The notes beneath the pieces were generated by a model, which made no database searches, was not told where the DNA came from, and worked only from the letters and a program-made list of their open reading frames with translations. From a bacterium (GTDB lineage: Bacteria; Patescibacteriota; Microgenomatia; Levybacterales; UBA12049), in assembly GCA_021813145.1 (NCBI GenBank), contig JAKALS010000003.1:6114-70113 (forward strand): a stretch of 64,000 nucleotides of DNA, given 5' to 3'. The translations under genes and the position numbers were made by a program. Below, piece after piece: positions 7,283-39,866 of the stretch; positions within the stretch are counted from its first letter, which is position 1; the number at the start of each line of letters is the position of its first letter.

Positions 7283-7942
7283 ATGGAAAATATTTATTGG
7301 TTTGGGCACTCAAGTTTTTCTTTTATCGACAAGAGCGGAAACAGAATATATTATGTTGACCCGTTTGATCTGAGGCCGCAAACTCTTGAAAAAGCAGACA
7401 TTGTTTTTATTACCCATGCCCATCCCGACCATTTTTCCCCTTCGGACATAGAAAAAATTATAAAGGATGACACCGTTATTGTTGCACCTGCGGATATCCT
7501 TGAGAAAATAGATATTCCAAACGAGAGAAAAATCACGGTATTACCTAATAAGAATTACGAAGTTAAAGAGTTTAAATTCAAAACCATCCCCGCATACAAC
7601 AATCATCCCGATAAGTTGCAATTTCATCCTAGAGAAAATAACTGGGTCGGATATATTTTTGAGTTAAACGGAAAAAAGATTTACCATGCGGGAGACACGG
7701 ACTTTATTCCCGAAATGAAAGATCTTGCGGATTTAAAGCTTTTTGTAGCAATGCTTCCGATCGGAGGCCACTATACAATGGACGAAAAAGAAGCCGCGGC
7801 CGCTGCAAACGCCATAAAAGCAGAATTTACAATTCCCATGCACTACAGAAGAAATGTCGGAGACAGATATCCGGAGGTGGAAGAAAACTTCAAGAAACTT
7901 GTCACCGAATCTAGGGTTGCAATACTCGAGGAGTTAAAGTAA
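7283..7942 (+). CDS. metallo-beta-lactamase-fold hydrolase
   Basis: ITHAHPDHF (HxHxDH) zinc-binding motif, second His/Asp motifs downstream. Confidence 0.75.
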
Positions 7943-8980
7943 TTTTTGCTGATTATTCTCTTTTGGCAAAGCCATTCCGAAATGTTTATAAGCCAAAGGG
8001 GTTGCCACTCTTCCTCTTGTTGTCTTTTTAATAAATCCTATTTGCAAAAGATAAGGCTCTATTACTTCTTCTATCGTTCCTATGTCTTCGCTTATCGTAG
8101 AAGCAATCGTTTCTATCCCGACCGGACCCCCGTTATGTTTTTCTATAATCGATTTTAAATATCTGACATCCGAAGAGTCCAGCCCTACCGAATCGACCTC
8201 AAGCATATCCAGGGCGTCTTTTATAAGGTCTTTCGTCAGTTTTCCTTCTCCTTTTACCTGTGCATAATCCCTGGCCCTTTTTAACAATTTAAGGGCAATT
8301 CTCGGAGTACCCCTTGCTCTTCTTGAAATTTCTACAATTGATTCTTTATCTACAGGGACTTTCAATTTTGCGGCAGCTTTTTCTATTATTTCTTCAAGTT
8401 CTCTTGGCTCATAAAAAGAAAGTCTATGCACTACTCCGAACCTGTCGCGAAGAGGAGCCGATAAAAGTCCTATTCTTGTTGTTGCGCCTATTATCGTAAA
8501 TTGCGGCAAGTCCATTCTCAGGGTTCTTGCGCTAGGCCCCTTGCCCAAAATTATGTCCAGGGCATAATCCTCCATTGCCGGGTAAAGGGTTTCCTCCACC
8601 ACCTTATTCAGCCTATGGATTTCGTCTATAAAAAGAATGTCTCCTTTTTCAAGATTTGTAAGAATAGAAGCTAAGTCCCCTGCCCTTTCTATTGCCGGGC
8701 CGGAAGTTATTCTTATATTAACCCCCATTTCTTTTGCTATTAAATGGGAAAGCGTTGTCTTACCAAGGCCGGGAGGACCATAAAGAAGGATATGCTCTAT
8801 TGACTCGTTTCTTTTTTTTGCGGCCGAAATCGCAATCCTCAAAGACTCTTTTACTTTTTCCTGTCCATAAAACTCTTTCCAATCATTTGCCCGAAGAGAA
8901 GTAAATAAAACTTCCTCTTCCGGACTCTCGTTCTCTATTTTTGATTTTTGATTTTTGATTTTTGATTTTCCTTCTGCCAT
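7934..8980 (-). CDS. ruvB: Holliday junction branch migration ATPase RuvB
   Basis: [13 protein letters not shown] Walker [12 protein letters not shown] Walker B, sensor and winged-helix regions; N-terminal [11 protein letters not shown] extension encoded by a 7-nt tandem repeat. Confidence 0.93.
8936..8969. repeat. 7-nt tandem repeat (tttttga)x4 inside ruvB 5' coding region
   Basis: Direct reading: ctatttttgatttttgatttttgatttttgattttcc. Confidence 0.9.
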
Positions 8981-9654: not shown

Positions 9655-10137
9655 TTAAGAACGCTCACTCCTTACAGAGAAGGCGTGACAGACTGCAATG
9701 GCCAGAGCATCGGCGGTGTCATCGGGCCTTGGAACGGAATCGAGCTTTAAAATTGTTTTTACCATTTTTCCCACCTGGTCTTTTTCCGCTCTTCCGTAAC
9801 CGGTTACCGCAATTTTTACCTGGAGCGGTGTGTAAATAGAAACTTTAAGTTTTTTTTCCGCTGCGGTTAACAAAACAACCCCCCGTGCCTGACCTACGGT
9901 AAATGCGGTTTTTGCATTTGTGTTAAAAAAAAGTTCTTCTATTGCCATGGATTCCGGCTTATTTTTTTCAATTATTTTTAAGAGCTCCCGATGTATTAAA
10001 GAAAGTCTTTCCTCTACTTTTAATTCCGTCGAAGTTTCTATACACCCGTAATTTCGGGTTTTGAGGTTTGAATTTTGAGTTTCAATTACCCCCCATCCGC
10101 ATCTTCCTATTCCCGGATCTATCCCAAGTATCGTCAT
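9655..10137 (-). CDS. ruvC: crossover junction endodeoxyribonuclease RuvC
   Basis: ILGIDPGIGRCGWGVI N-terminal catalytic Asp motif, C-terminal DAADALAIAVCH; ORF extends to 10170 but likely starts at the internal Met. Confidence 0.85.
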   Translation of the reverse strand: MTILGIDPGIGRCGWGVIETQNSNLKTRNYGCIETSTELKVEERLSLIHRELLKIIEKNKPESMAIEELFFNTNAKTAFTVGQARGVVLLTAAEKKLKVSIYTPLQVKIAVTGYGRAEKDQVGKMVKTILKLDSVPRPDDTADALAIAVCHAFSVRSERS

Positions 10138-10256
10138 AGCGAATAGATAATAACACAAATAAAATCCCAATTCCTAAATCCCAAACACACTAAAAATTAG
10201 AAATCAGAAATTGGAATACTTGTATTCATAATTCTTTTCCTGTAAAATATCAATTT

Positions 10257-10970
10257 ATGAAGCGGGAAAAACTTAAGGTTGAAAAACGAAAAGTTTTGGG
10301 CAAACAGGTTAAAAAATTGAGGCAGGAAGGGATTCTTCCCGCAAATGTTTACGGCGGAGATATAAAATCCACTGCCGTACAGCTTCCCCTTAAAGAATTC
10401 AGCTCTGTTTATAAAGAAGTTGGAGAAACAGGGCTTATTGACCTGGATTTGGAAGGAAAACTTATCCCCGTTCTTATCCACAACGTTAACGAAGACTACA
10501 GAAAAGGAATTTTACACGCCGATTTCTTCCAGGTAAACCTTAAAGAAAAAGTAAGAACGGCGGTACCTCTGGAGGTTGTCGGAGAGCCCAAAGCCGAAAC
10601 CGATAAAGTAGGTCTATTGATGAATATTATTTCCGAAGTGGAAGTCGAAGCTCTTCCCGAAGATCTTCCCGAACACATAGAGGTCAACGTAGAACCTCTT
10701 GCGGCAGTTGATGAACAAATAACGGTAGCGGACCTTAAAGTTCCTCAGGGAGTAACAGTTTTAACAGACGGCGAGCAGGTCGTCGCAAAAATCGGGGAAC
10801 TTGTAAGCAAAGAAGCTCAAGAACAGGCTGCGGAAGAAGCTGCAGCTGCCGAAGCGGCATCCGCCGAAGCGGGAGCCGAAGCCCCGGCCGAAGGAGAAGT
10901 GCCTCAAGAGGAGGCGCAGCAGCCTGCCGAAGCGGGAGCCGAAGCACCAAAAGAAGAAAACCAGGGTTAA
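10257..10970 (+). CDS. rplY: 50S ribosomal protein L25 (Ctc form) with Ala/Glu-rich C-terminal tail
   Basis: N-terminus MKREKLKVEKRKVLGKQVKKLRQEGILPANVYGG typical of L25/Ctc; low-complexity AEEAAAAEAASAEAGAEAPAEGE tail. Confidence 0.85.
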   Translation: MKREKLKVEKRKVLGKQVKKLRQEGILPANVYGGDIKSTAVQLPLKEFSSVYKEVGETGLIDLDLEGKLIPVLIHNVNEDYRKGILHADFFQVNLKEKVRTAVPLEVVGEPKAETDKVGLLMNIISEVEVEALPEDLPEHIEVNVEPLAAVDEQITVADLKVPQGVTVLTDGEQVVAKIGELVSKEAQEQAAEEAAAAEAASAEAGAEAPAEGEVPQEEAQQPAEAGAEAPKEENQG

Positions 10971-11438
10971 TTATTCCCCCTCAAGCTGTTTTTTTAACGC
11001 CAATGCCTCCCCGTAGTTTGGATCTATATATAACGCCTTCTGAAGATAATTCACGCTTGAGCGAAGATCTCCCAGCTCAAATTCTCTGACTGCAATTTGA
11101 AAATAAACCTCTTTATAGTTTGGGTATTTTTGAGCAAAGGATTTCCATATATTTGCTTCCGAAACTATTTTTTGCCTTTTAGCCTCAATTGTTTGTTCTT
11201 TTAAGTAGTTTTTATAAAGATTTACAGAAGCCAGCATAATAAATGCTAAAAGGGTTAAAAAAACAAAAAAAATGGACATCTTTTTCAAGGGCTCTGCCAG
11301 GCCTGTAAAAAAGGGCTTTTCGGGAATAAATCGGGAATTCCTCGGGAATTTCCCTTTTACTTCCTGTTTTTTAACCGCAGGCTTTATGGAACTGTTTTTC
11401 TTTTGGTTTTTTAAGGGTTTTGTTCCTTTAAACTTCAT
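10971..11438 (-). CDS. membrane-anchored TPR-like protein
   Basis: One TM helix (IFFVFLTLLAFIMLASV) plus TPR-like C-terminus (LQKALYIDPNYGEALALKKQL). Confidence 0.5.
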   Translation of the reverse strand: MKFKGTKPLKNQKKNSSIKPAVKKQEVKGKFPRNSRFIPEKPFFTGLAEPLKKMSIFFVFLTLLAFIMLASVNLYKNYLKEQTIEAKRQKIVSEANIWKSFAQKYPNYKEVYFQIAVREFELGDLRSSVNYLQKALYIDPNYGEALALKKQLEGE

Positions 11439-11442
11439 ACTT

Positions 11443-13620
11443 TTACTCCAAAGAAGGCCATTTGCTTATTATTAAATCCTCTTCCCCGCCGTAGAGCAAG
11501 TCATATATCTCCTCCGTTACAAAAGGCATAAAGGGATGCAGCAGTTTTAATAGAATTAAAAATGAAGATGTTAATACATCAAATGTATGTCGGGAGGCGT
11601 CATCATTGTTGTTTAAAGATTTTTTTGACTCTTCAATGTATATATCGGCAAATTCGTGCCATGCAAAATCATATAGATTTTGTGCGGAATGATTAAAATC
11701 ATAATTATTCAAAAGCCTAGTAATTTCCGCCGTTATCTTCTCTGTTTTTTCGATCATTGATCTATCGCTTTGCCACATATCTTTCTCCCCGTGTTTCTTT
11801 GATAAAACACGCAATTCTTGTATTGACAGTTCTGCAACCTTTAATTCCTTTTCATTTTTTTGAAACTCGATAAAGCGTGCCATATTCCATAATTTATTCG
11901 TAAATTTTCGCATCGCTTCAAGTTTGGGATAAGACAAGGACTGGTCATTGCCAAGGGCTGTTCCGTAAACAAGGGCAAATCTTACGGCATCCGCCCCGTA
12001 CTGGTCAACGAGCTCAAGGGGATTTATTACATTTCCCTTGCTCTTGCTCATTTTTTTACCCAAGGGGTCATTTACCAGTCCATGTAAGACTACATCTTTA
12101 AAGGGAATTTGCTTTTTTATATCCTTAACCCCCTCTTTTTCCTGAATATAAATCCCAAGCATTACCATTCTTGCCACCCACCACCTTAATATGTCATATC
12201 CCGTCTCCATAACGCTCGTCGGGTAATATTCGAGACCCCCCGTTGTTTTAAGCGTTGCGTAGGGCCACTGTCCGGAAGAAAACCACGTGTCAAAAGTATC
12301 GCTATCCTGAACCATTTTTCCCGAACATTTCCCGCATTTTTCCCGAGGTTCCCCTTCCGTTACCTCCCATTCCCCACAATTCTCACACTTATAAGCAGGA
12401 ATTCTTATCCCCCAAATAATCTGCCTTGAAATGTTCCAGTCCCTTATTCCTTCCAAAAATTGGAGATAAAGCTTATTAAAATTTTCGGGGTAAATTCTAA
12501 TATCCTTATTTTTAACTGTTTCCATTGCTTTTCTTGCCAAAGGCTCCATTTTTACGAACCACTGCTCCATCGGAAGCGGCTCTATCGGGTTTTTGCATTT
12601 ATAACAGACTCCGATTCTGTGTACGTAATTTTCATCGATATGGTCTATCAGACCTTTTTTCTGCATTTCGTCAACTACCGCTTTTCTCGCCTGCCTTACG
12701 TACAAGCCCTCAAATTTGCCCGCTTTTTCATTCATTTTGCCGTCAAAATTTATTACCTGTACCATAGGAAGATTATGCCTTTGTCCTGCCTCGAAATCGT
12801 TAAAATCGTGAGCAGGGGTTATTTTTACAACGCCTGTTCCGAATTCCGGGTCTACCATCTTATCCGCTATAACTTTAATTTTTGCTTTTCCCAAAACCGT
12901 TTCTATTTCAATTTCTTTTCCTATATATTTTTTATACCTTTTGTCGTCGGGATTAACCGCAATAGCAGTATCGCCAAACTTCGTTTCGGGCCTTGTCGTT
13001 GCCAAAACAAGCGGCCCGTATTTAATGTAATAAAGAGGATTTTTTCTTTCTTCGTAAAGAACCTCAAGGTCGGAAAAGCCGGTTCCGTCAAAAGTACAAT
13101 AATTTACAAGTCTTTTTTGCCTGTAGACGAGGCCGTCGTCATATAACCATTTAAAAGTTTTATAGACAATTTTTATTATATCCTCGTCGAGGGTAAATTT
13201 TTTCTTTTCCCAGTCAAGAGAAAACCCCAGTCTTCTTAGCTGATCTTCCATTCCCTTCCGGTTATTTTGAACGTAATCCATTATCATTTCGTAGAGCTCT
13301 TCCCTTTCATAGTCAAAACGCGATTTGCCTTTTTCCTGAAGTTTTTTCTCATAAACGAATTGGGTTTCAAACCCGGCATGATCTGCTCCGGGAAGCCAAA
13401 GAGTTTTTTTGCCCAACATTCTGTTAAACCTTGTGAGTATATCTTCTATAACATACATCGCGTGGCCGAAGTGAAGCGGAGCATTTGCGTTTGGAGGAGG
13501 TAAAATTATCGAGAATTTTTCCCTGTTCCCGAACCTTTCCCTGGGGTTAAAATATCCTTTTTCTTCCCAATTTTTATAAATTCTTTCCTCGACGCTTTTA
13601 TTATTATAGACTTTATCCAT
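11443..13620 (-). CDS. valS: valyl-tRNA synthetase (short form lacking C-terminal coiled coil)
   Basis: PPPNANAPLHFGHA HIGH region followed by TLWLPGADHAGFETQ (matches the ValRS pattern ...LW..G.DHAGIATQ), KMSKSKGNV. Confidence 0.85.
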   Translation of the reverse strand: MDKVYNNKSVEERIYKNWEEKGYFNPRERFGNREKFSIILPPPNANAPLHFGHAMYVIEDILTRFNRMLGKKTLWLPGADHAGFETQFVYEKKLQEKGKSRFDYEREELYEMIMDYVQNNRKGMEDQLRRLGFSLDWEKKKFTLDEDIIKIVYKTFKWLYDDGLVYRQKRLVNYCTFDGTGFSDLEVLYEERKNPLYYIKYGPLVLATTRPETKFGDTAIAVNPDDKRYKKYIGKEIEIETVLGKAKIKVIADKMVDPEFGTGVVKITPAHDFNDFEAGQRHNLPMVQVINFDGKMNEKAGKFEGLYVRQARKAVVDEMQKKGLIDHIDENYVHRIGVCYKCKNPIEPLPMEQWFVKMEPLARKAMETVKNKDIRIYPENFNKLYLQFLEGIRDWNISRQIIWGIRIPAYKCENCGEWEVTEGEPREKCGKCSGKMVQDSDTFDTWFSSGQWPYATLKTTGGLEYYPTSVMETGYDILRWWVARMVMLGIYIQEKEGVKDIKKQIPFKDVVLHGLVNDPLGKKMSKSKGNVINPLELVDQYGADAVRFALVYGTALGNDQSLSYPKLEAMRKFTNKLWNMARFIEFQKNEKELKVAELSIQELRVLSKKHGEKDMWQSDRSMIEKTEKITAEITRLLNNYDFNHSAQNLYDFAWHEFADIYIEESKKSLNNNDDASRHTFDVLTSSFLILLKLLHPFMPFVTEEIYDLLYGGEEDLIISKWPSLE

Positions 13621-13651
13621 CAGCTTATTCTAACATAGCCTCAAAAAGGGT

Positions 13652-14995
13652 TCAAACGGATTCTATAAGCTTATAGCCTCTTGTTTTTATTGTTTGTATC
13701 TCAAAATTGCCGTTTTGGTTCTTAAGTTTAAGCCTGAGTCTTCCCATAAGTTTGTCTATTGCCCAGTCCGATACCCCTGTTTCCTGTTCCTGGGGCCATA
13801 CGATTTCTATGATTTTTTCTCTTTCGCAAATTTGGTTGAGGTTGTCTTTTAAACAATTAAAAAGCAAAAGTTCTTTCTTACTAAGCTCCGAATATCCTTC
13901 TTTTTGCTCTTCCTTCTCCCTCTCTTTTACATGATATTCGAAAAGCTGATTAAAAATTTTAAAAATTTTTCCTTCTTCTTTTATAAACCCGCTGTTTAAT
14001 AGGTATTCCGCTTTTTTCTTATCCTCTTTCGTAAGTTTTTCCCTTTTTACAATTTTTAAGAGTATTGCCTGCTCGTCTTTGTTGAGGTTTTCCCAAAGCT
14101 CCTCGGACTGAAGCCTTATCCCTTCATCTGCCACAAGGTATTCAAAAAGTTTATTTTTGTCCTTTTTATCCGCTCCTTTTTCGTGAAGGAGTATAAGGGC
14201 AAGCTGTAAGTATCTGAAGTGCCCGTTGGAAAAGTCCAAAAGATAGTCCTCTATTTCATCTCCCAGTGTCACATCATATCTTCTCTTATAAGTATTTAAA
14301 ATTATCCTTTGGTCCGTTTTTTCCGCGGGTTTTATATACAACTTTCTGTATCCGACCAAAAGGGCCGCGTGCTGGAAAACGTCGGGAAAAATTCTTTCAA
14401 AAGGCAAAAAACTGGTAAACACATAAGAGAGCTGGTGATGAGTAGCATCCCTAAGCCCGGCAAGATTTGCAAAAAATTCCGGTGTAACCGATCCGATCAG
14501 CCTGTCGAACCTGATTAAAAAAAGGGTCGGTAAATATCCCTGATCAATTATTTTTTTTATGGAAAGCCTTACGCTGTCTAAAGTAAAAAATAAATCCTGA
14601 AGCTGAATGCTCTCCAAAAAAAGCTCGTTTATCTCTTTTTTTACAAAAGGGTTCATGGAAGACGCTTCAACTGCATCAACTATCCTTTTTAACGTAAGAG
14701 TCCAAAATGGCTGTATCTCGCTCTCGACTAAATCGTTAAGGTCCACGGGAATAAAAAAATGCTTCCCCCTTCCCTTTACGTATGTATCTTGAATTTCCCG
14801 TTTTCCGATAAAAAAATTAAGAAAATTACTTATACCCACCCTTTTTATCCCGAGAAGAACTACGGAGTGCCTGTGTTTTATGTGTGCTCCTAAATCTTCG
14901 GAGTCATTTTTTCTAAAAGTTACGGGGTAATTTGCTGTTCCAATCGATTTGTCCATGGTTTCCCCTATTTTAGATGTATCAAAAACTTTTATCAA
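13652..14995 (-). CDS. NTPase-like domain fused to C-terminal OmpR/PhoB-type winged-helix DNA-binding domain (paralog of 33609-34937)
   Basis: Deviant P-loop VVLLGIKRVGISNFLNFF; C-terminus VSDWAIDKLMGRLRLKL...IQTIKTRGYKLI resembles trans_reg_C. Confidence 0.6.
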   Translation of the reverse strand: MIKVFDTSKIGETMDKSIGTANYPVTFRKNDSEDLGAHIKHRHSVVLLGIKRVGISNFLNFFIGKREIQDTYVKGRGKHFFIPVDLNDLVESEIQPFWTLTLKRIVDAVEASSMNPFVKKEINELFLESIQLQDLFFTLDSVRLSIKKIIDQGYLPTLFLIRFDRLIGSVTPEFFANLAGLRDATHHQLSYVFTSFLPFERIFPDVFQHAALLVGYRKLYIKPAEKTDQRIILNTYKRRYDVTLGDEIEDYLLDFSNGHFRYLQLALILLHEKGADKKDKNKLFEYLVADEGIRLQSEELWENLNKDEQAILLKIVKREKLTKEDKKKAEYLLNSGFIKEEGKIFKIFNQLFEYHVKEREKEEQKEGYSELSKKELLLFNCLKDNLNQICEREKIIEIVWPQEQETGVSDWAIDKLMGRLRLKLKNQNGNFEIQTIKTRGYKLIESV

Positions 14996-14999
14996 TAAC

Positions 15000-15487
15000 G
15001 ATTTGTCAGGTTTTTGTCAAAAAAGAGTCTGTTCGCGGTCAAGCTGGTACAAAAAAATAAGGATATATTAATTTTATGAAAAGAGTGGAAATTGAAACAC
15101 CGGGAGATTATTTAGGACACTGGGGAGACAATTCTTTTGCCAATAGCCTTGCGGCAGACAGGGCCTCCTTAAGGCCTTACTCAGAAAGAGATCCTAAAAT
15201 GCTTAAAAGTGAAGAAAGGCAAAGTCCTACAGAAATAGCGATAAGAGGAGGTGATAAAAAATGAAAGAACTGGATTTTCATGAGGGGCTTGGCCCCCATA
15301 CAACAACGTCAAAAGTACAGTTTGTTCCGGGAAGACCGGACCTAAATAGAGCAGAGGCGGAAAGAGCATCAATAGTCGAGGTGGATGGAAGACCGGCCCT
15401 GGACAGAGCTATAACGGTTAGGGGAAGAGAGGTTCCCGTCTATATTCACGGGCAAGTCCAGCAAAGCTAATCTGCTATAATTCCCCC
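15000..15487. ncRNA. candidate structured RNA in GC-elevated divergent intergenic region (identity unresolved; not confirmed as RNase P, SRP or 6S)
   Basis: 490-bp ORF-poor region between divergent genes with locally raised G+C and hairpins (GGCCTccttaAGGCC; CCGGgaagaCCGG). Loose resemblance to RNase P CR-II (GGCGGAAAGAGCA), but the P4 pairing test fails. Confidence 0.3.
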
Positions 15488-16105
15488 ATGGCTGACAGAA
15501 AAACCGCTTACGTTATTTTTAATCTGTTAAAAAAGAGATACCCAGATGCAAAAATTTCTTTAACCTATTCAAACAACTTTGAGCTTCTTGTCTGCGTAAT
15601 GCTTTCCGCACAAACCACGGATGCACAGGTAAATAAAATTACCCCCTGCTTATTCAAGAAATATAAAGGCAAAAATGAAACGGAAGAAATTGAAAATTTT
15701 GCAAATGCCAAATTAGAAGTACTCGAAAAAGACATAAATGCAATAGGGTTGTACCGGGTAAAAGCCAAAAATATCAAAGCTGCTGCACGGGTTATTCTAA
15801 AAAAATTTCAAGGTAGAATTCCAAAAACAATGGATGAAATACTAACCCTTCCCGGAGTAGGAAGAAAAACCGGAAACGTAGTTCTTTTTAACGCTTTTGG
15901 AGAAATAGAAGGGATAGCGGTAGATACTCATGTAAGAAGACAGGCAAAAGATTTGGGATTAACAAAAAATAATGACCCATTAAAAATAGAAAAAGATTTA
16001 ATGGAATTGTTCGATAAAAAAGATTGGCCGAAAATTACTTCCCTTTTGATCGCCTACGGAAGAGATATTAGGAAAAATAAGAAAAAAAGATTACTTTTTA
16101 ACTAA
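15488..16105 (+). CDS. nth: endonuclease III-like HhH-GPD DNA glycosylase (no C-terminal Fe-S Cys cluster visible)
   Basis: LPGVGRKTGNVVL helix-hairpin-helix motif, VMLSAQTTDAQVNK, catalytic Asp (AVDTHV) region. Confidence 0.85.
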   Translation: MADRKTAYVIFNLLKKRYPDAKISLTYSNNFELLVCVMLSAQTTDAQVNKITPCLFKKYKGKNETEEIENFANAKLEVLEKDINAIGLYRVKAKNIKAAARVILKKFQGRIPKTMDEILTLPGVGRKTGNVVLFNAFGEIEGIAVDTHVRRQAKDLGLTKNNDPLKIEKDLMELFDKKDWPKITSLLIAYGRDIRKNKKKRLLFN

Positions 16106-18763
16106 ATCTACGCTTATTTCTTTGTCGCTGTTTAAATTTGTGGAATAAACGAGCCTGCTATCTCCCGCCTGACCGTCGGTTGTGGAAATGATTTTATACG
16201 AAGAGGGATATGTAAGAGAAAAATCGAAGGGATAAGTGTCTGTACCCGGCTGTTTAAATACTTTAAGATCATAGGTGATTTCGGGAGAAGAAACTTGGAC
16301 TTGTTCGGGCATAGAATAATCAAGCTCTATTGTCTGCAGTGAATTTACGGGAACTATAGTCAAAAATCCGTATATGGTTTTGCCGTCCTGGTTATAGCTC
16401 TCCACCTCAAGCCCGCCCGGGGGGACAAAATTAGTATTTTCATATACCTGGGGATTTGTAACCGCGTTAACAATTTTTTGAGATTGTCCGTTTATTTTAA
16501 TTTCCGAAACCGTCGCGCCCAGAGGAAGAATAAACCTCAGATAATCCTTGTAGATGCCGCCCGGCCAGATATTATCCGTATTTGTATTTTTATAAGCAAC
16601 CGTTATGCTTCCCTCCACGTTTCCCTTATCGTCTATATTAACTACCTCTGATTCGCTTCTTCTTATAAAATAATTATCCTTGTTGATCCCTAAGTTTGCC
16701 TCATTGATTCCGATAAAATCGTTTACCGCCGTAGGGCTTTGTTTCCTGTCATCCCAGATAGCCGAGGACCATCCGTTAACGGTAAAAAGGTTCTGTATGC
16801 TTGAATTGTCAAAAGCAAAAAGAATGTGCTTTTGGGAAAGGGAATCCCCCACCGCTTTTGCCAGAGCAAGATAAGAAATGCCTTTTTGTGAAGAAATTTT
16901 GTTTTCCATAGCGTTTAAAAGAGCTCTCAAAAAATCTTTTTTTTGGGTCGAACCCGGAAAAAAATTTTTTTCGGCATGAGACTCGGTCAACTGAAAAACA
17001 TTATCCGCATTTACAGTCTGTTTATATTCCGGAACGTAAATGTTCCCCATGGCAGACAAAATATTTTTTACAAAACTCAAATCTACGCCTATTACTCCAT
17101 TTACCATTTCGCCTTTTTCGATGTTTAAAAAGTTCGCAGCCTGTGCCGCAGAATCGACAAAATTAACATTAAAATTGCTGTCCCTAAGATACCAGTCTTT
17201 GGATGCCATATATCTTCTTATTGCGAAAGGCGGCTCGATATGTCCCTTAAGCTGACCGTCTGCATCATATACGTCATAAATTTTAAAGCTTGTTATCCTC
17301 CCGTTATCAAGAGCGAGAATCCCGTAAGAGCCTATAAATCCCCCTCCGGGCCTTAATTCCATATTGTTTTGAAATAAAACCATGTATGTTCTTTTTCCGT
17401 TATACCCCAAAACATCCGGCCATATGCTTATCGTATTTGAAGCAAACTGAACCAATGGATCTATTTTTTCCGTAAGGCCGGAAAAGTCTTGGCCTTGGGC
17501 TTTTTCTTTTTCAAATATAACAATTGCGTTTTTTAAATTATTCGACGCATCCGTAAAATTGGACGATGCCTGAGAAGGACTGCTTTTTAAGGCAGCCATT
17601 AAATATTTCGACGCTTCGATAAGATAAATTCCGGCAGTTGAAAGATTTTTTCCCATACCGACATCGTTGTTTATCCCTGAAAAGATATTGGGTTGTCCTA
17701 TCAGCTGTCCCTGCGAGTAAAGAATAATTGATCCTCCCTGAGCTAATGCAAAGAGCTTATTCGAATAGATAACGTCTTTTTCTGCCTCGGGTAATTTGCC
17801 TTTGTCTATAGAGTTTTTTGCGGACTCTAAGTATCTTAAGCCAAGGTAGGAAAATCCGAGGGTTGTTATAAGCGGAAGCAAAAGAAAAAAACCGATACAA
17901 AAAACAAGCCAAAGAAAAGGAAGAAAAAACCGTCCTCTTTTTTCTTTTTCCATTTTAATAGCCTCCGGGACAACAGGATTATCCTTAAGCTCAATCTTTT
18001 TTACCCTCTCCTCCAGAGGATAATTTTCAAAAAAATAAACCCCTTCGGGATAAAAGACATAATTGTCTTGTTTGACTTTTTTTTCTTTTATAAAATCTAT
18101 AGAAACGGATGGATTGTGTTTTTGTATCATGTGGGCAAGGGTAATGTTTGCTACCCCGTGTTTTGGAAAAAGATAAAACAGGTTTCTTGAATTGGCTTCG
18201 CCAAAAACAGCCTCAAATATCCCCGTGACTAAGTCTTCGGCGAAAATAGGAAAAGAGAGTCCCGTACCGTCTCCGGGGATCGTAATTTTTCCCGTATTTT
18301 CAGCTTCATATATAAATTTATTGATAACCGTTTCCCGATCATAAATTATGTCCTTAAAAAATACGTCCCCGAAAATTATTACCTTCACGCTCGGATAGGC
18401 ACTCATTAGCCCCCGCACATATATCTGGCTCATGTTATCTATATGTGTTGCAAACAAAAATACCCCTTTATCCGACTGTGCCTTTTTTACAAAACTCGGT
18501 AGGGAGTCTTTGGTTGACTTTGTTTTGTCGTCCACAACAAAAATATATGAGTAAGTATTATCGGGGATTGTTGGTATTTTTTTAAAAAATGGAATATGAA
18601 CAACGTTGTCCGTTGTTGACGGTTGTTTTTGACTGACAAAAACAACAAGGGATTCATCCTTTAGCCGTTTTACAAGTAAATCCCCTATTATCCCTACCCT
18701 GTCTACTATTAAAATTGGGCTTTCCTCGTTCTTTTGGGAAGTAATAAAAGAAGATCTTGCCAC
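16091..18763 (-). CDS. large bitopic membrane protein: cytoplasmic Rossmann-like N-terminal domain, one TM, ~600-aa extracytoplasmic domain (DUF4012-like)
   Basis: N-terminus ILIVDRVGIIGDLLV; central TM FFLPFLWLVFCIGFFLLLPLITTLGF; long Asn/Ser/Gly-rich C-terminal domain. Confidence 0.5.
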   Translation of the reverse strand: MARSSFITSQKNEESPILIVDRVGIIGDLLVKRLKDESLVVFVSQKQPSTTDNVVHIPFFKKIPTIPDNTYSYIFVVDDKTKSTKDSLPSFVKKAQSDKGVFLFATHIDNMSQIYVRGLMSAYPSVKVIIFGDVFFKDIIYDRETVINKFIYEAENTGKITIPGDGTGLSFPIFAEDLVTGIFEAVFGEANSRNLFYLFPKHGVANITLAHMIQKHNPSVSIDFIKEKKVKQDNYVFYPEGVYFFENYPLEERVKKIELKDNPVVPEAIKMEKEKRGRFFLPFLWLVFCIGFFLLLPLITTLGFSYLGLRYLESAKNSIDKGKLPEAEKDVIYSNKLFALAQGGSIILYSQGQLIGQPNIFSGINNDVGMGKNLSTAGIYLIEASKYLMAALKSSPSQASSNFTDASNNLKNAIVIFEKEKAQGQDFSGLTEKIDPLVQFASNTISIWPDVLGYNGKRTYMVLFQNNMELRPGGGFIGSYGILALDNGRITSFKIYDVYDADGQLKGHIEPPFAIRRYMASKDWYLRDSNFNVNFVDSAAQAANFLNIEKGEMVNGVIGVDLSFVKNILSAMGNIYVPEYKQTVNADNVFQLTESHAEKNFFPGSTQKKDFLRALLNAMENKISSQKGISYLALAKAVGDSLSQKHILFAFDNSSIQNLFTVNGWSSAIWDDRKQSPTAVNDFIGINEANLGINKDNYFIRRSESEVVNIDDKGNVEGSITVAYKNTNTDNIWPGGIYKDYLRFILPLGATVSEIKINGQSQKIVNAVTNPQVYENTNFVPPGGLEVESYNQDGKTIYGFLTIVPVNSLQTIELDYSMPEQVQVSSPEITYDLKVFKQPGTDTYPFDFSLTYPSSYKIISTTDGQAGDSRLVYSTNLNSDKEISVDLVKK

Positions 18764-18781
18764 AAATTAATTGTAGGAACT

Positions 18782-19201
18782 CTAGATGAGGTTGTCCAGA
18801 GCTAAATTCACCAACTCGTCGGCTTTTTTATTGGATTCTCTTGGAACATGATGCCATTCAATGGGAACTTCCACCTTAGAGATTTTTTCCTTAACGGTAT
18901 AAATAAGTTCTCTTATGTGCTCCGTTTTAACTTTGTATACTCCTATTATCTGGGAATAAACAAGCTGGGAGTCGAGATTAAAGATTATTTTTGAAATCTT
19001 TAAGCCTTGCTTATTTGCTATAACCCAGTTCAAGGCTTCAATAACCGCCAAATATTCCGCCACATTGTTCGTGGTATTTCCTATTCTTTTTCCTATTCCC
19101 GCAAGTTTTTTTCCGCTATTATCCGCTATGTAAACACCCAGCGCTGCGGGACCCGGATTTCCCCTTGCTCCTCCATCTGTATTTATATGTATTTCATTCA
19201 T
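18782..19201 (-). CDS. rnhA: ribonuclease HI
   Basis: INTDGGARGNPGPAALGVYI and NNVAEYLAVIEAL catalytic DEDD motifs. Confidence 0.88.
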   Translation of the reverse strand: MNEIHINTDGGARGNPGPAALGVYIADNSGKKLAGIGKRIGNTTNNVAEYLAVIEALNWVIANKQGLKISKIIFNLDSQLVYSQIIGVYKVKTEHIRELIYTVKEKISKVEVPIEWHHVPRESNKKADELVNLALDNLI

Positions 19202-20444
19202 TTTCTCGTTCCTTTTCTAAAAAAATTTTAATAGAAAATACTTTAAATGCCAATAGGACAAAAACTCCCCCCTCCGAAAGCCCCGTAATAACCGCGGACG
19301 CAAAATAAGAATATTGAGGAATAAAAATAAGATTCAATAAAATGTTTAATATTGTAGAGACACCGTAAACCCACGCCAGAAACTTCTGTTCTTTTAAGGC
19401 AATAAGTATCCACTGTAAAAAACTCGTTAAAAAGAAAAGTGGAACAGAAAGAAGAAGTATCCTAAAGGGCACTATTGCCGGAAGATAGTCCGATTTTATT
19501 AAAGATAAAAGGGGAGACAAAAACCAAAAAGGAACAACGACAAAAAAGGAAAACCCCAGGAAAATTAAAAAATAATGCGAAGTTATATTGAAGAATTTTT
19601 TAGTGTCGTTTTTGTTTGAAAGAAGGAACGGGTATAAAGAATTTGAAAGAAAAAGCGGAAGGGACAGTATAAAATCAAAAAACTTATAAGAGAGACCGTA
19701 TATTCCTACATCCCTTGTCGGCCTTAAGACAGAAAGCAAAAACATGTCTGCGCGGAAATATATTAAATTAAAAATTAGCATTAAGCCTATTGGGAATGCG
19801 GCAACAATAATTTTTTTTGAAAATTTGAAATCAAAGTCAACGGGAAACACCTTATTCCTTACATAACAAAGCGAAAGGCCGGCAGTGATAAAACTGCTAA
19901 ACGCGTAAGAAAACAATATAAACAGAAGGGGCATTTTAAAATAAACTAAAACTGTTATAAGTAAAAAATTAAACAGTGAACCCGAAACAGTCGAAAGAAA
20001 ATAAGGGAAATAATTAAGCCTTTTTTGAAAAAGTCCCCCCGTTGAATTAATTATCGACTGACTGAGTATGGAAAACGAATAAATAAAAATTCCCATCCTC
20101 ACAAGAGGAGAAAACCCAAGACCGGTCAGATTGTTAAATGGAAGAAAATAAGCGATTCCATTTGAAGCAACTAAAACAAAAAGTGCAATTACTACTCTTA
20201 AATAAAAAATCTTTTTAAAGTTTTCGTACTTATCGTTCTCCACCTGAAGATAAATAGCGTTAAGGCCCAAATCAACAAATAAATAAAATAGGGCGACAAA
20301 AGCTGTGGCTTTTGTAAAGTCGCCATAGCCCACAACCCCAAAACTACGGGCAATAATGACAGTAATTGCAAAACCAAGAAACGCGGTTATTGATTTGGCA
20401 AGAGTCTGATAAAACGTGTTTTTTGCCACTACAGAGTGGAACAT
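19194..20444 (-). CDS. polysaccharide/oligosaccharide flippase (Wzx/MOP-superfamily-like)
   Basis: ~12 predicted TM helices with an architecture typical of lipid-linked oligosaccharide flippases; adjacent to a ligase-like gene. Confidence 0.6.
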   Translation of the reverse strand: MFHSVVAKNTFYQTLAKSITAFLGFAITVIIARSFGVVGYGDFTKATAFVALFYLFVDLGLNAIYLQVENDKYENFKKIFYLRVVIALFVLVASNGIAYFLPFNNLTGLGFSPLVRMGIFIYSFSILSQSIINSTGGLFQKRLNYFPYFLSTVSGSLFNFLLITVLVYFKMPLLFILFSYAFSSFITAGLSLCYVRNKVFPVDFDFKFSKKIIVAAFPIGLMLIFNLIYFRADMFLLSVLRPTRDVGIYGLSYKFFDFILSLPLFLSNSLYPFLLSNKNDTKKFFNITSHYFLIFLGFSFFVVVPFWFLSPLLSLIKSDYLPAIVPFRILLLSVPLFFLTSFLQWILIALKEQKFLAWVYGVSTILNILLNLIFIPQYSYFASAVITGLSEGGVFVLLAFKVFSIKIFLEKERENE

Positions 20445-29331: not shown

Positions 29332-29996
29332 TGGCTTTCCCTCCCTTTAACAACAGGAGTATTGATGTTGTCCTCGGCTTGCCCTGTTTCTATAGAGCTT
29401 TCGTTGTATATTTCGTAAAAAAGCTTTACCAGTTCTTCTTTTCCTAGGGTTTTTGCTTTAAGGTTTAGTCTTGAAAGTTGTGAGTGAAGAGACTCCGCTT
29501 TTGAATGGAGCGCTGTTTTTGCCGACTGGGCGAAGGAAGCCGCGTCAAAAGACTTTTTGTTTACGCTTGCAGCGGCAGCGCCCGCTCCCTTTTCAAGATA
29601 AGAAAAAGGTAAAACAATATAGAATTTTTTGTCCAAAACGGTATTCACCTTCACGAGCTCCTGAACAAAATCCCTGTAGAGTCTTATTTGCTCGGCAAGC
29701 ATCTGGTTCTGCGTTTTTTTTGCTTCATTTTCTAATAACTTTAAATAAGAGGAAATATCAAGTTTTTTGCTTCTAATGAGGATTTGTATAGGGAAAGACA
29801 GCGAATTCAGAAGCGCAGCGTAGGAGTAAATTTTAGAATCCTGTTCTTCTGCCGATAAAAGGGCAAAATTTGTTGCCGTGACTTCTATTACAAGACAAGC
29901 GTTTCCTCCTGTTAAAATTACTACATCATCAACGATATCCTGTATTTCGGTAAACTTTTGCGTTGTCGCGTTGATTTTTCGGGCAGTTTTGGCCAT
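29328..29996 (-). CDS. T4SS-associated hypothetical protein
   Basis: Co-oriented and translationally coupled (overlapping stop/start) with virB4; no recognisable motif. Confidence 0.4.
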   Translation of the reverse strand: MAKTARKINATTQKFTEIQDIVDDVVILTGGNACLVIEVTATNFALLSAEEQDSKIYSYAALLNSLSFPIQILIRSKKLDISSYLKLLENEAKKTQNQMLAEQIRLYRDFVQELVKVNTVLDKKFYIVLPFSYLEKGAGAAAASVNKKSFDAASFAQSAKTALHSKAESLHSQLSRLNLKAKTLGKEELVKLFYEIYNESSIETGQAEDNINTPVVKGRESQ

Positions 29997-31258
29997 TAGT
30001 TAAAAAGAGACCTCCTTAACTCTTCTCTTGTGTCTACGGAAATAACTTCTATGGGAAGAATAATCTGGCCTGTTGCGCTAAACTCTATTACATCAAACTT
30101 GTTCTCTCCCTTGGAGTCCTCAAATTCAATGGTATATGTGCCGTTCGTTATGGGGGTGGCAGAGGCAAATTGCCCAAGCGGATTAGTTTTAAATGCTCTT
30201 ACGGGATTCCCTTCGGCATCTTTTACCTCAACCAGAATATTTTGCAAGGGGTTCCCTCTCGGGTCCTTTACTATTCCCGTTACGATATTGGGAAACTCCG
30301 GCGCCAAGGGAAGGCCGACGCTTTTTCCCAGGTTTTGGGGGATACTTCTTACGTTCCTCGTTTCCTTTACCGGTTCCTGCGCAACTGAAGGCGTGTAAAC
30401 AGTCTCCCTGTTTGCGGTTAATTGTTTTTGTAAAAGTTCTATCTGTTTTTCAAGTTCCTGTTTTTGTTTTGCGGTTTCGGAAAGCATCGTTTCAAGCTCC
30501 ATTACTTTTTTGTGTGCTTCCGTATACTCTGTGGAGTTTATCTTTGACGTCTCGGCGGCTTTTGCTTCTGCAAGCTCCTGCTGAAGAATGAGAGTCTCTC
30601 TTTTTAGGGTTTCTTCTTCGTCCGAAGGTTTTTCTTCTTCTTGTTGCTGCCCTTGCTCCACCGGTATTTGTACTTGCGACGCGGCCGGAAGTTGTGTTGG
30701 TGGCTGCTGTTGTCCGGGAACGGGTACGTTTGCAAAAGCATGGGCGGGAGGAGCCTGTGGAATGGGATTTGTCTGCGTCTGTCCAGAATACATATTGCTT
30801 AAGGATTCAAAAAAAACCATTTCTTTTTGGTCTAACTGATTTTTTGGCCTCTTTGGAAGAGAATTTAGGTATGATTTTAATTCTTCACCCGAGAGAGAAG
30901 TAGTTTCTTTTTGGGGAACAAGCTTGGCGGAGCTTTTTTTAACCGGTTTTATATCTTCCCATAACTGGCCGCCGGTTTTTTGGTAAACAAATTGGGTCGG
31001 AGAAAAAATTGCTTTAATAAAATTTTCAAACATTAAATCCATGGGCCTTCCCTCTATCGGTAAAAAAGCCATTCCTACGCCTAAAAATATGGAAGTGACG
31101 GCAAGGGGAAGTTTTATAAGCATAAAAAAGGGGCTTGCGAACAAAAGCCAACCAAGTACAATTCCGCCTGCCAGATAGGCAAATTGTTTTATGGTCATAT
31201 CGCCGATCAGTTTAAACTGAAAGCCCGTTATGTCCTGTGGTATCGGATGATTTTCCAT
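29996..31258 (-). CDS. T4SS-associated membrane protein (VirB3-like N-terminal TM hairpin, coiled-coil and Gln/Pro-rich linker, C-terminal beta domain)
   Basis: Two N-terminal TM helices (FAYLAGGIVLGWLLFASPFFMLI, LPLAVTSIFLGVGMAFLPI); QQ-rich and heptad region; operon position. Confidence 0.45.
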   Translation of the reverse strand: MENHPIPQDITGFQFKLIGDMTIKQFAYLAGGIVLGWLLFASPFFMLIKLPLAVTSIFLGVGMAFLPIEGRPMDLMFENFIKAIFSPTQFVYQKTGGQLWEDIKPVKKSSAKLVPQKETTSLSGEELKSYLNSLPKRPKNQLDQKEMVFFESLSNMYSGQTQTNPIPQAPPAHAFANVPVPGQQQPPTQLPAASQVQIPVEQGQQQEEEKPSDEEETLKRETLILQQELAEAKAAETSKINSTEYTEAHKKVMELETMLSETAKQKQELEKQIELLQKQLTANRETVYTPSVAQEPVKETRNVRSIPQNLGKSVGLPLAPEFPNIVTGIVKDPRGNPLQNILVEVKDAEGNPVRAFKTNPLGQFASATPITNGTYTIEFEDSKGENKFDVIEFSATGQIILPIEVISVDTREELRRSLFN

Positions 31259-31365
31259 CTCTTAATTGTTATTTAATTGTATTTTCAGCATATAACGTGA
31301 AAAATTGCGTTTCAAGATTATCAAACTGGGTCAAAAAATATTGGAAATGAGGCTATCCGTGAAAA

Positions 31366-31680
31366 TTATGAACAATTTCCAAAACCGAAAGGTTTAGTAA
31401 TACAAGATGTTCCCGTAATTTGAGCTATTATAGCTATAATAGCGCCTGCAAGAAGTATTAGAATAAGCCCCAAAATGGCATAGGTAAGCGTTTTTCTTGC
31501 TCCCTCTACTTGTTTCGGGTCGCCGCCTGACGTTAAAAATTTTATTCCTGCGAAGATTATAAAAAAAACGGCGGTAACTCCGGCTAATCCTATAAGCCAA
31601 AAAACAAGATTATTGAAAACAACAGGAATACAATTTAGTGTTGCAACGCCGTTTTGAACGCAGTCTCCCCAAGGTTGCAT
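31366..31680 (-). CDS. VirB2/TrbC-like pilin paralog 1
   Basis: ~100 aa, helix-SGGD-helix architecture (FAGIKFLTSGGDPKQVEGARKTLTYAILGLILILLAG); Cys-containing N and C tails. Confidence 0.6.
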   Translation of the reverse strand: MQPWGDCVQNGVATLNCIPVVFNNLVFWLIGLAGVTAVFFIIFAGIKFLTSGGDPKQVEGARKTLTYAILGLILILLAGAIIAIIAQITGTSCITKPFGFGNCS

Positions 31681-31720
31681 GAAATAAGCGTAGCAAAAGG
31701 AAAACTAAAAGACAAGTGGG

Positions 31721-32128
31721 TTAACTGCAGGTTGGATTTGTAAGGCTTGGTATGCAGAATTTGCCCGTTAGCGGGTTTGAAATCCCTATAAGCTGGAAAA
31801 CTATATTTATGATGACAAATGCTGTTACGACTATTACTAACCCGATTATAGCTGCAACAATGTGTTTTCTTGCTGCGTCAACTGCCGCCTTATCCCCGCC
31901 CGAAAGAATCCATTTTATTCCTCCATAGATCAAAAAAGCTACCGCTACCAGTACCCCGACGATCAAAAGTAAGGATAAGATAAAAGATGGTATATTCCCA
32001 AGATTAACAGAAGTTGTAGGAGCGTAACCCGTCCCGGGGGCAATTGTAACCGTAATTTGCGCGAACGCATTTGAGGCTGCCAATAAATAGAACGATGCGG
32101 CAGAGATAAAACCCAGTGCTTTTTTCAT
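31721..32128 (-). CDS. VirB2/TrbC-like pilin paralog 2 (with signal peptide)
   Basis: Signal peptide MKKALGFISAASFYLLAASNAFAQ; core IYGGIKWILSGGDKAAVDAARKHIVAAIIGLVIVV; C-terminal CxxxxxxxxCS. Confidence 0.6.
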   Translation of the reverse strand: MKKALGFISAASFYLLAASNAFAQITVTIAPGTGYAPTTSVNLGNIPSFILSLLLIVGVLVAVAFLIYGGIKWILSGGDKAAVDAARKHIVAAIIGLVIVVTAFVIINIVFQLIGISNPLTGKFCIPSLTNPTCS

Positions 32129-32173
32129 TACTCTTTCTTGAGAATATAGTGTTTTTGCTGATTTGTCAAGAGC

Positions 32174-32509
32174 TTAGAACAATTTTCCTACTCCCAATAG
32201 TTGATAGACAAAATTGACAATGGTGCCCGCAAGAACAACGACTATAAGTCCGATTATCGAGAAAATAAGCCTTTGTCTTGCAGCCTGAATTTTTTGTTTG
32301 TCGCCGCCGGACATGGTCCACTGTATTCCGGCATAAATAATAAAAGCCATTGCTAAGACTACTGCGAGTAAAATTAAAATACTGCTCGCAATGGAAATAA
32401 GGGTAGTGCCGGTACTTATTCCGGCATCCGGTACGCCATTGGGCGGGGTGATGGTCACGTTTCCGTTGTTTCCCGGAACAGTTAACGCTAAAAGTTTCAT
32501 ATTATCCAA
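32174..32509 (-). CDS. VirB2/TrbC-like pilin paralog 3
   Basis: Core IYAGIQWTMSGGDKQKIQAARQRLIFSIIGLIVVVLAG. Confidence 0.6.
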   Translation of the reverse strand: MDNMKLLALTVPGNNGNVTITPPNGVPDAGISTGTTLISIASSILILLAVVLAMAFIIYAGIQWTMSGGDKQKIQAARQRLIFSIIGLIVVVLAGTIVNFVYQLLGVGKLF

Positions 32510-33572
32510 AGCCCGGAATGTGTAAAATATTAACCCCTATTATTTCAAGAATAACAAGAGAAAAAATAATAAACAATAGTCCCACTATTGCTGCGGTTAG
32601 TTGTTCCCTCGCTCCTTTTATCGCTTCCGGATTTCCTTGTGAGACCAAAAGCCTGTATCCGGATATTATTATCAGTAAAAGCGCCACTCCCCCCGAGAGG
32701 CTTAATATTAAGCCGAAAAGACTTGTTATAAGACTTTGGGGCTCTGTTCCTAACGTTCCAAGCGCGGTATCAACAGCAGTACAGGATCCTTTTACCGTAG
32801 AACCTAAATGGCAGGGTGAAGGCGGAGATTGATCTTGAGGGTTACCCGCGGAGTTAACCCCTCCCCCGTAAGTATCTACATAAAAAGTTGCATAACATGC
32901 CTGTTTTTCTAACAGGTGGGCGGGAGTGCACCCGTCGTTTATTTGCATATAATATCTTCCCGTTGAAAGCGGAACAAAACCAAATCCAGTACTATTCGTT
33001 AAATCTCTTCTTGTTACACAGCCGTCCCAAACGCTCCCCCCGTTGTTGTCATTAATGCGGATATAAGTGTGTAATTGATCGTCTGGATTGCCTGACGCAA
33101 GGGGACCTGTCATTTTTATTATTATATTATTGGTTGGCGTAAACGATTGGTTTAGGAATGAAATATTGCAACTTGTCCCTCCGCTTCCCGAGCCTGCGCT
33201 CCCAATCGTAAAAACAGGACTGTTGTTGCACAAATTATTTCCCGTGTCCGAAGAAAGAAAAAGCCCCACTTTGTAGGCTCCATTCCCAAAAGTTGAGGGA
33301 ACGGCGGCTGTCACTTTTCCGGAGGAGGCGGAGTAGGGGATTGGAACAGAATACCTAATGGTGTTAGTTCTTATAAAATTACCATTTAGGGAAACATAAT
33401 ATGTGAGATCCTTATTGTTTGCCAGATTCCCGTTTGTATCTATTGTAATTGTCCCGCCGTTATTAATACTGGAAGGACTGACGGAGCAGGCAAAAGAGGC
33501 GTAAGTTTTTTTAGGAAAAAATATTAAAAAAAGCAACAGTCCAAAAAAGACCAAAAGGAAAATTCTTTTCAC
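32502..33572 (-). CDS. secreted Gly/Ser/Asn-rich beta-type domain fused to C-terminal VirB2-like pilin module (candidate minor/tip pilin or adhesin)
   Basis: Signal peptide; C-terminus ISGYRLLVSQGNPEAIKGAREQLTAAIVGLLFIIFSLVIL shares the motif of the three pilins. Confidence 0.5.
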   Translation of the reverse strand: MKRIFLLVFFGLLLFLIFFPKKTYASFACSVSPSSINNGGTITIDTNGNLANNKDLTYYVSLNGNFIRTNTIRYSVPIPYSASSGKVTAAVPSTFGNGAYKVGLFLSSDTGNNLCNNSPVFTIGSAGSGSGGTSCNISFLNQSFTPTNNIIIKMTGPLASGNPDDQLHTYIRINDNNGGSVWDGCVTRRDLTNSTGFGFVPLSTGRYYMQINDGCTPAHLLEKQACYATFYVDTYGGGVNSAGNPQDQSPPSPCHLGSTVKGSCTAVDTALGTLGTEPQSLITSLFGLILSLSGGVALLLIIISGYRLLVSQGNPEAIKGAREQLTAAIVGLLFIIFSLVILEIIGVNILHIPGFG

Positions 33573-39203: not shown

Positions 39204-39317
39204 CCTAAAATCAGTTTGTCCTATTTTGTGGCTTATGTCAAGCGCAGCAGTCGTATTGGCGGAGAGAGGCGGGATTTGGTTCGACTATGCTCACCATAAA
39301 CTTCTCATCCCTTGGTG

Positions 39318-39405
39318 CGGAGGGGGCGGGATTCGAACCCGCGATATCCTTGCGGATATACCTGCTCTCCAAGCAAGCGCACTAGACCAACTATGCGACC
39401 CCTCC
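39318..39405 (-). tRNA. tRNA-Ser (anticodon GGA)
   Basis: Hand fold: acceptor GGAGGGG/CCCCTCC, 3-bp D stem, anticodon loop TTGGAGA, long variable arm with GCAA loop, T-loop TTCGAAT, discriminator G. Confidence 0.85.
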
Positions 39406-39406
39406 A

Positions 39407-39447
39407 AACTAGATGCTAGAAACTAGATACTAGATGTTAGATGTTTC
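39407..39447. repeat. 7-nt tandem repeat (Nctagat)x5 abutting tRNA-Ser and overlapping the nudix 3' end
   Basis: actagatgctagaaactagatactagatgttagatg read directly. Confidence 0.85.
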
Positions 39448-39866
39448 TGAGCCTCTTTCCAGACCTCTTTGTCCGATTTATAGGTTAATCTGTTTTCAAC
39501 TTCTTCCGGTTTTATCCACTCAACATTTTCCATTTCCCAATCATGCTCACTAATGTCTCCCGATAAATATTCCATTAAGTAATAATATACGGTTTTTTTT
39601 ATTTTCTCGCCCTCCAGAACGTACCAATACTGAACAGGACTTAAAGCCTTTATTATTTTACCGCTAACACCTGTTTCTTCTTTTACTTCCCTTACCGCCG
39701 TTTGTTCTTTTCCCTCTCCTTTTATGTGGTCTCCGATAATACCTTTAGGAAAAACCCAACCGTGGTGTTGGGAATGCTGAGACACCAAGATCAGGATTGC
39801 TGATTGCTGATTACTGATTACTGATTTTTTAAATACGACTCCGCCGGCAGAAAATTCAAATCTCAT
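39423..39866 (-). CDS. NUDIX hydrolase
   Basis: Nudix box GEGKEQTAVREVKEETGV; GGVVFKK N-terminal strand. Confidence 0.85.
   Translation of the reverse strand: MRFEFSAGGVVFKKSVISNQQSAILILVSQHSQHHGWVFPKGIIGDHIKGEGKEQTAVREVKEETGVSGKIIKALSPVQYWYVLEGEKIKKTVYYYLMEYLSGDISEHDWEMENVEWIKPEEVENRLTYKSDKEVWKEAQKHLTSSI
39793..39830. repeat. 7-nt tandem repeat (Nctgatt)x5 inside the nudix 5' coding region
   Basis: aggattgctgattgctgattactgattactgatttttt read directly. Confidence 0.85.

Follow-up and report, generated by a model that had tools for sequence, protein, structure and literature searches.

Heptanucleotide tandem repeats in core genes of uncultured Levybacteria: a probable lineage-wide mutational signature and a natural ruvB frameshift allele

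Tandem repeats with a unit that is not divisible by three are frameshift hazards wherever they lie inside a gene, which raises the question of why an uncultured member of the Levybacteria (CPR) carries them in ruvB and a Nudix hydrolase gene. The window, the whole stretch of 64,000 nt analysed here, contains three period-7 tracts, as the first-pass annotation had reported, at coordinates that agree with ours to 1–3 nt. In a lag-p self-match scan for p from 4 to 15, all matches, three in number, have period 7. Shuffling the window 100 times with its dinucleotides preserved gives a mean of 0.01 period-7 matches, which excludes a chance origin of the tracts. The tracts and the genes that they touch are as follows.

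7934–8980, minus strand: ruvB CDS, 348 aa (Pfam RuvB_N, AAA, AAA_lid_4 and WHD_RuvB)
8937–8969, minus strand: perfect heptanucleotide tract of 33 nt, (TCAAAAA)x4.7, forming ruvB codons 4–15 (12 residues)
39317–39405, minus strand: tRNA-Ser(GGA), directly downstream of the next tract on the same strand, with a 3-nt gap to the tRNA 5′ end
39409–39445, minus strand: degenerate tract of 37 nt, (NATCTAR)x5, forming the last six Nudix residues, the TAG stop and the spacer to the tRNA
39423–39866, minus strand: Nudix hydrolase CDS, 147 aa (Pfam PF00293)
39795–39826, minus strand: imperfect heptanucleotide tract of 32 nt, coding strand AATCAGT x2, AATCAGC x2 and AATC, forming Nudix codons 14–24

A looser scan of the window adds two decayed segments, and the 9.5 kb of the same genome that follow the window end contain no further tract.

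10051–10082, minus strand: decayed 7-periodic tract, AAACTCA AAATTCA AACCTCA AAACCCG AAAT, coding for the RuvC β-hairpin ETQNSNLKTRN
48108–48140, no strand assigned: decayed CCAGTAT-like tract of 33 nt, non-coding, upstream (5′) of a histidine-phosphatase (His_Phos) gene

Pfam matches establish the identity of RuvC, RuvA, RuvB and the Nudix protein among the called genes, and RuvB homologs with 80–93% identity come from Candidatus Levybacteria/Levyibacteriota and from metagenome-assembled genomes (MAGs) labeled “Patescibacteria”. The ruvB tract reads as a perfect (ATTTTTG)x4.7 on the plus strand and as (TCAAAAA) or (AAAAATC) units on the coding strand. Since the ATG at 8980, 9 nt past the ruvA stop, is the only in-frame start ahead of the conserved RuvB core, the tract must be translated, and an alternative start that skips it is ruled out. 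In a related Levybacteria contig this junction has been lost altogether: the 536-aa JGI protein P0260 is a RuvA-RuvB fusion in which the ruvA stop and the ruvB start have become sense codons (...NLGRNYTVAKDKLKT...). At the opposite end of the gene, the ruvB 3′ end overlaps that of a convergent metallo-β-lactamase-fold gene (7283–7942, plus strand) by 9 nt (7934–7942).

The exact 348-aa RuvB, with its four-unit tract, is encoded by five contigs of sister assemblies. Contig L002 (sample ERZ27237587), first traced through a 302-aa RuvB recorded as “100% identical” (P0015), differs by exactly one TCAAAAA unit in the alignment, giving assembled copy numbers of four units in five assemblies and three in one. 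Over 18,842 aligned nucleotides L002 and the window show no mismatch and a single 7-nt gap, and across ~47 kb in three stretches the sister sample departs from the window by one intergenic SNP (window position 40709) and one 7-nt indel, which falls in the sole perfect tract. The three-unit allele runs into a stop after 12 codons. Upstream rescue is ruled out, as no ATG, GTG or TTG lies ahead of the tract in the RuvB frame; the first start codon to follow is the TTG of codon 47, 46 codons in, and the gene caller’s 302-aa product that begins there therefore lacks the conserved N-terminal motif. Judged from the reading frames, the four-unit allele is in frame (ON) and the three-unit allele is predicted to be OFF or, at best, to give an N-terminally truncated product. 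The earlier prediction that gain or loss of one unit would shift the frame thus appears to be borne out in nature, and the copy number is not invariant across the assemblies. In ruvB, then, a perfect array has apparently given rise to a single-unit frameshift allele in a natural setting.

Both the tracts and the copy-number difference could in principle reflect assembly or sequencing error or random base composition. L002 does derive from a short-read MEGAHIT assembly, and the three-unit allele is known from an assembled contig. A 33-nt tract, however, is far below both the k-mer (141) and the read length and therefore should not collapse; the identical four-unit tract recurs in five independent assemblies, equivalent tracts appear in MAGs and contigs of unrelated projects, and the shuffles leave almost nothing for composition to explain. 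We regard such an artefact as highly improbable. The first-pass annotation had offered assembly or strain heterogeneity as a single alternative; the strain half is probably right, as the ruvB copy number differs between assemblies, and an assembly error is improbable.

Contigs of the sister sample break off at window positions 18849 and 37546, and the ~18.7 kb between them were assembled separately, which may reflect strain variation. This stretch includes a T4SS-pilin-like gene cluster followed by PrgI-like and TraC-like genes (window ~29423–33572; L003:16295–20444), and a TrwB/TraG-like ATPase and an integrase lie ~7–9 kb past the window end (L167:17892–20588).

Do these tracts form a contingency system? 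Contingency loci show high-frequency, reversible switching with an adaptive phenotype, and they typically involve surface, restriction-modification or host-interaction genes. Applied here, the ruvB tract, and perhaps those of ruvC and the Nudix gene, would reversibly switch Holliday-junction processing or nucleotide sanitation and so create subpopulations with altered recombination or mutation. Several features fit. As in phase-variable genes, the repeat units in the ruvB and Nudix CDSs are not divisible by three, and the ruvB change toggles the reading frame between intact and truncated on an otherwise identical background. The ruvB tract is perfect and sits in the 5′ coding region, like that of neuO, a gene expressed only when its repeat number is in frame; the tract at the RuvB N-terminus is kept from species to species; and three of the tract-bearing genes of the window belong to DNA repair or nucleotide metabolism. 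Against this, five of the six assemblies are ON, 4.7 units are few next to classical contingency loci (3–53 repeats in neuO), and the Nudix and ruvC tracts of this genome are decayed and without variation. Similar tracts also occur, in many species, in the essential leuS gene and in structurally neutral hairpins, where ON/OFF switching would be of no use. The housekeeping character of the genes and the tract in leuS therefore argue against a dedicated adaptive role, and we consider adaptive phase variation rather unlikely.

The Nudix tracts illustrate how such arrays may age. The coding tract, which can also be written as GATTGCT x2, GATTACT x2 and GATT, encodes KSVISNQQSAI at the tip of the first β-hairpin, and a T-to-C change at tract position 21 falls exactly where the perfect repeat would give an in-frame TAA. 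The 3′ tract reads CATCTAA CATCTAG TATCTAG TTTCTAG CATCTAG on the coding strand, with a stop codon in every unit, and supplies the TAG stop of the gene at 39423–39425. In the AlphaFold model of the protein (mean pLDDT 91.8), residues 14–24 form the hairpin tip and the tract-coded tail forms the C-terminus; these are the two lowest-confidence segments. The protein is identical on six of six contigs and the 3′ tract is the same in the sister sample. Among 2075 homologs, no truncation at 100% identity betrays slippage.

Homologs of the Nudix protein exist in a short form or in forms with a 10-residue tract-type segment. The short form (142 aa) holds a 12-nt seed, AAAAAAGAAAAC, and differs from the tract form (149 aa) by exactly 7 aa, or three units, so a length of 33 nt fits a seed plus the smallest in-frame expansion. 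In one other Levybacteria species the hairpin is encoded by a perfect 33-mer, (AAAAATC)x4.7, the same array as the ruvB tract of the window, and it is identical in three of three independent assemblies. The C-terminal ...SSI motif is kept among homologs, which suggests that the 3′ tract grew from the terminal TATCTAG into the pre-tRNA spacer. On this evidence the coding tract would be an older array made stable by point mutation, and the tract at the stop and tRNA flank would be the terminal TATCTAG of the gene expanded into non-coding DNA. Consensus scans for promoters and terminators perform no better here than on shuffled sequence and place no site within a tract, so a promoter or terminator role is rejected. 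The surrounding cluster (39317–40086, minus strand) runs head to tail as tRNA-Arg(GCG), tRNA-Ser(CGA), Nudix and tRNA-Ser(GGA) with only one promoter-like site, at 40086–40058; the protein gene therefore appears to be embedded in a tRNA transcription unit.

Beyond the window, period 7 dominates in the Levybacteria loci sampled. We compared RuvB loci drawn from genome and metagenome collections: in 22 Levybacteria loci (286 kb) there are 16 tracts of period 7, one of period 6 and one of period 9, the latter two both being runs of Ala codons, while 138 loci of other bacteria (1.85 Mb) hold 20 period-7 tracts and 32 of other periods. In a second neighborhood, around the Nudix gene of three further Levybacteria, period 7 alone passes the threshold. 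In all, ~25 Levybacteria loci (~400 kb) contain 23 period-7 tracts against only two of any other period. Similar tracts are thus present elsewhere, in answer to the first-pass annotation, for which their absence would have counted against its reading.

Length is equally distinctive. Nearly all Levybacteria period-7 tracts span 31–35 nt (~4.7 units, 11 codons). Perfect tracts are bimodal, with a chance tail at 14–20 nt, none at 21–28 nt, ten at 29–33 nt and none longer; imperfect ones measure 31–37 nt, and tracts outside the Levybacteria range from 22 to 56 nt. Although 17 of 19 tracts are coding, the few non-coding ones are also ~31–37 nt long, a length that frame constraint alone does not predict. 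The first-pass annotation had called such repeats odd for housekeeping genes and typical of contingency loci. That oddity disappears at the scale of the lineage, where ~33-nt heptanucleotide tracts are routine in housekeeping genes, including the essential leuS, which therefore indicates a lineage-wide mutational bias filtered by selection.

Two loci in this comparison stand apart. L112 (Ga0265297_10000650, positions 9887–19664), a non-Levybacteria metagenome contig with 48% GC and a RuvB of 61% identity, packs ten heptanucleotide tracts into 21 kb, with units that include TAGAAGT, GGGCATT and CCGAACG, and looks like another heptamer-rich organism. In L097 (302–375), between ruvA and ruvB, a CGTATTA-like heptamer array of 33 nt and an inverted copy of it, separated by 6 nt, make a long hairpin.

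Tracts recur at the same permissive places in orthologous proteins, namely the RuvB N-terminus, the RuvC hairpin, the LeuS linker and the Nudix hairpin, with a unit that depends on the species. The RuvC β-hairpin, flanked by GWGVI and YGCIET, has a constant length of 11 aa, also in tract-free CPR, and nearly all Levybacteria loci show a 7-nt periodicity there, some of them as perfect tracts; its units are AAGTTCA, AAAGTCA, AAAYTCA, AGAGTTC, CTAGAGG or AAAATGN. The LeuS linker, which follows KLWNxxRFIxMN, carries arrays of GTCAAAA, GATTTAC, AAATCAA, AATTCAA or AAACTCA. The RuvB N-terminal leader varies in length (334–355 aa for the proteins of 90% clusters), and the same tract is seen there in decayed copies.

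Recurrence of this kind could also mean that the ~33-nt 7-periodic tracts are kept as functional elements of DNA, RNA or peptide, such as sites for a heptamer-binding protein, unstructured A-rich translation-initiation regions or flexible K/S/Q-rich peptides. The tightly kept length of coding and non-coding tracts alike, the presence of an AAAWTCA-type unit in four different proteins and the persistence of perfect arrays at sites with flanks that have diverged by 15–25% speak for such a role. The units, however, vary widely by tract and species (CTAGAGG, GATTTAC, AAGTTCA), which is incompatible with one binding specificity. At some orthologous sites an equally long sequence without repeats stands in place of the array, as in the 11-aa LeuS linker segment of L012 and the RuvC hairpins of L013 and L014. 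Rfam searches at the ruvB and ruvC tracts return no family at E ≤ 1, excluding a known RNA family there, and stop-codon avoidance together with A-rich codon usage accounts for the bias in units. A selected functional element is therefore quite improbable.

GC-rich palindromic mini-insertions use the same permissive sites and sometimes split a tract. They are found at the RuvB N-terminus in L092 (3661–3675) and L087 (~8365–8405), in the LeuS linkers of L009, L010 and L089, and in P0150 and P0261; examples are CCGCCAGCCGGCGG, with peptides such as PPAKARNWRAGKNPARLASESVTGR or SAFAKAS..ADKSADK. No 7-nt duplication is evident at their flanks, and a transposon-footprint or target-site-duplication origin of the tracts is accordingly rejected.

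Within genes, the tracts also bear a trace of selection against stop codons. Since three adjoining 7-nt units run through every reading frame, a unit would have to be stop-free in each of them. Read on the sense strand, the consensus unit lacks stops in 13 of 17 coding tracts; on the antisense strand the same holds for just two of 17, against 59% expected from base composition. All four exceptions, the Nudix coding tract among them, are imperfect precisely at the position of the in-frame TAA. Avoidance of stops after T on the coding strand also fits the three window tracts better than a shared “GATNNNN” phasing motif.

Taken together, these observations suggest that the tracts are probably heptanucleotide microsatellites prone to slippage, which mark the Levybacteria lineage as a mutational signature that selection has filtered. 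Arrays would arise by replication slippage in 7-nt steps on A-rich seeds of ~12 nt, each a 7-mer followed by a 4–5-nt repeat of its start. Inside a gene, the array would have to grow by three units overall (21 nt, 7 codons) to keep the frame, which would make fixed coding tracts cluster at ~33 nt, the seed plus 21 nt. Their persistence would require a protein site that accepts any sequence (N-terminal leaders, β-hairpin tips, linkers and C-terminal tails) and a unit that is free of stops in the three sense frames. Ongoing slippage or misaligned repair would homogenize the arrays, so that each species comes to have its own unit at an orthologous site. For leuS, growth of a seed from 1.7 to 4.7 units, or homogenization at constant length, is assumed to proceed by multi-unit slippage or misaligned repair and so to escape lethal frameshifts. 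Perfect arrays would be hypermutable, with single-unit frameshift alleles purged from essential genes and perhaps segregating in dispensable ones. Counting against the model are the finding of only one copy-number variant, in one of six assemblies, the constancy of the perfect Nudix array of the other species in three of three assemblies, and the similar length of the non-coding tracts.

On this view the tracts put the reading frame at risk and may in some cases work as switches. The contingency reading of the first-pass annotation survives in part: copy number differs between assemblies in ruvB and the difference is predicted to inactivate the gene, but the wider pattern is a signature spread over housekeeping genes, and both Nudix tracts are imperfect and unchanged in six of six assemblies. 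A dedicated contingency system is thus only partly supported, and the claim of an adaptive switch is unproven. A bolder proposal is a process specific to the Levybacteria (a misalignment-repair pathway, or a replicative or repair polymerase that slips in a 7-nt register) that writes and homogenizes ~33-nt arrays at fixed permissive sites of ruvB, ruvC, leuS and Nudix genes, where they would serve as reversible frameshift switches, a “housekeeping phasome” by which an uncultured symbiont with a reduced genome turns recombination and repair on and off. We consider this proposal unlikely.

If slippage does shape the arrays in this way, core genes of a CPR lineage carry putatively hypermutable, frameshift-prone repeats, at least one of which, in ruvB, is found in the predicted OFF state in a natural population. 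With the tracts, the joint shaping of protein loops by mutation bias (7-nt slippage) and by selection (frame, stop avoidance and structural tolerance) could be tested cleanly in nature, and they may hint at unusual replication or repair machinery in Levybacteria. They could also be used as strain markers, and they carry a warning for annotation, since one-unit variants yield truncated calls such as the 302-aa “RuvB”.

Our literature search found no reports of heptanucleotide repeats in CPR/Patescibacteria, and the nearest comparisons come from other organisms. Heptanucleotides are described as the most abundant class of long simple sequence repeats (SSRs) in many bacterial genomes, with polymerase slippage as the proposed cause (Mrazek et al. 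2007, as cited in PMC4692102 and PMC4679880); examples include the STRR of Calothrix and Nostoc, GGGNATC in Xanthomonas and Nostoc, and TAACTGA in Beggiatoaceae. The Levybacteria tracts resemble these, as far as those accounts describe them, in their tandem 7-nt units, the lineage-specific excess of period 7 (16 against two tracts in the 286 kb of Levybacteria loci), copy numbers beyond chance (three tracts against 0.01 in the window) and arrays that vary in length and sequence among close relatives. The described repeats, however, are mostly intergenic, often share one genome-wide unit and cover a broad range of copy numbers, whereas the Levybacteria tracts lie mostly in conserved housekeeping genes, at orthologous protein sites, cluster at ~33 nt and use many units. 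TCAAAAA, AATCAGY, CATCTAG, AAGTTCA, GATTTAC, CTAGAGG and others, largely in coding sequence, do not make a dispersed repeat of one unit such as STRR, TAACTGA or GGGNATC.

The amino-acid tandem repeats of Borgs are similar in another respect. Like the Levybacteria tracts, they are perfect nucleotide repeats that arise de novo in open reading frames, evolve fast, are specific to a genome and occupy regions tolerant of disorder. Their coding units, however, are all divisible by three (PMC9879509), whereas a 7-nt unit keeps the frame in three-unit steps only and single-unit slippage destroys the gene.

The closest parallel to the ruvB tract itself is neuO of E. coli K1 and phage CUS-3, which varies in phase through a heptanucleotide AAGACTC repeat in its 5′ coding region (PMC13001214). 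Both have a 7-nt unit just past the start codon that is translated in three frames, both give a full-length product only at an in-frame repeat number, and natural ON and OFF alleles, predicted ones in the case of ruvB, occur for both. They differ in scale and setting: neuO is a phage-borne surface-modification gene with 3–53 repeats and measured switching, whereas the ruvB tract comprises 4.7 units, shows a single variant among assemblies and lies in a core repair gene.
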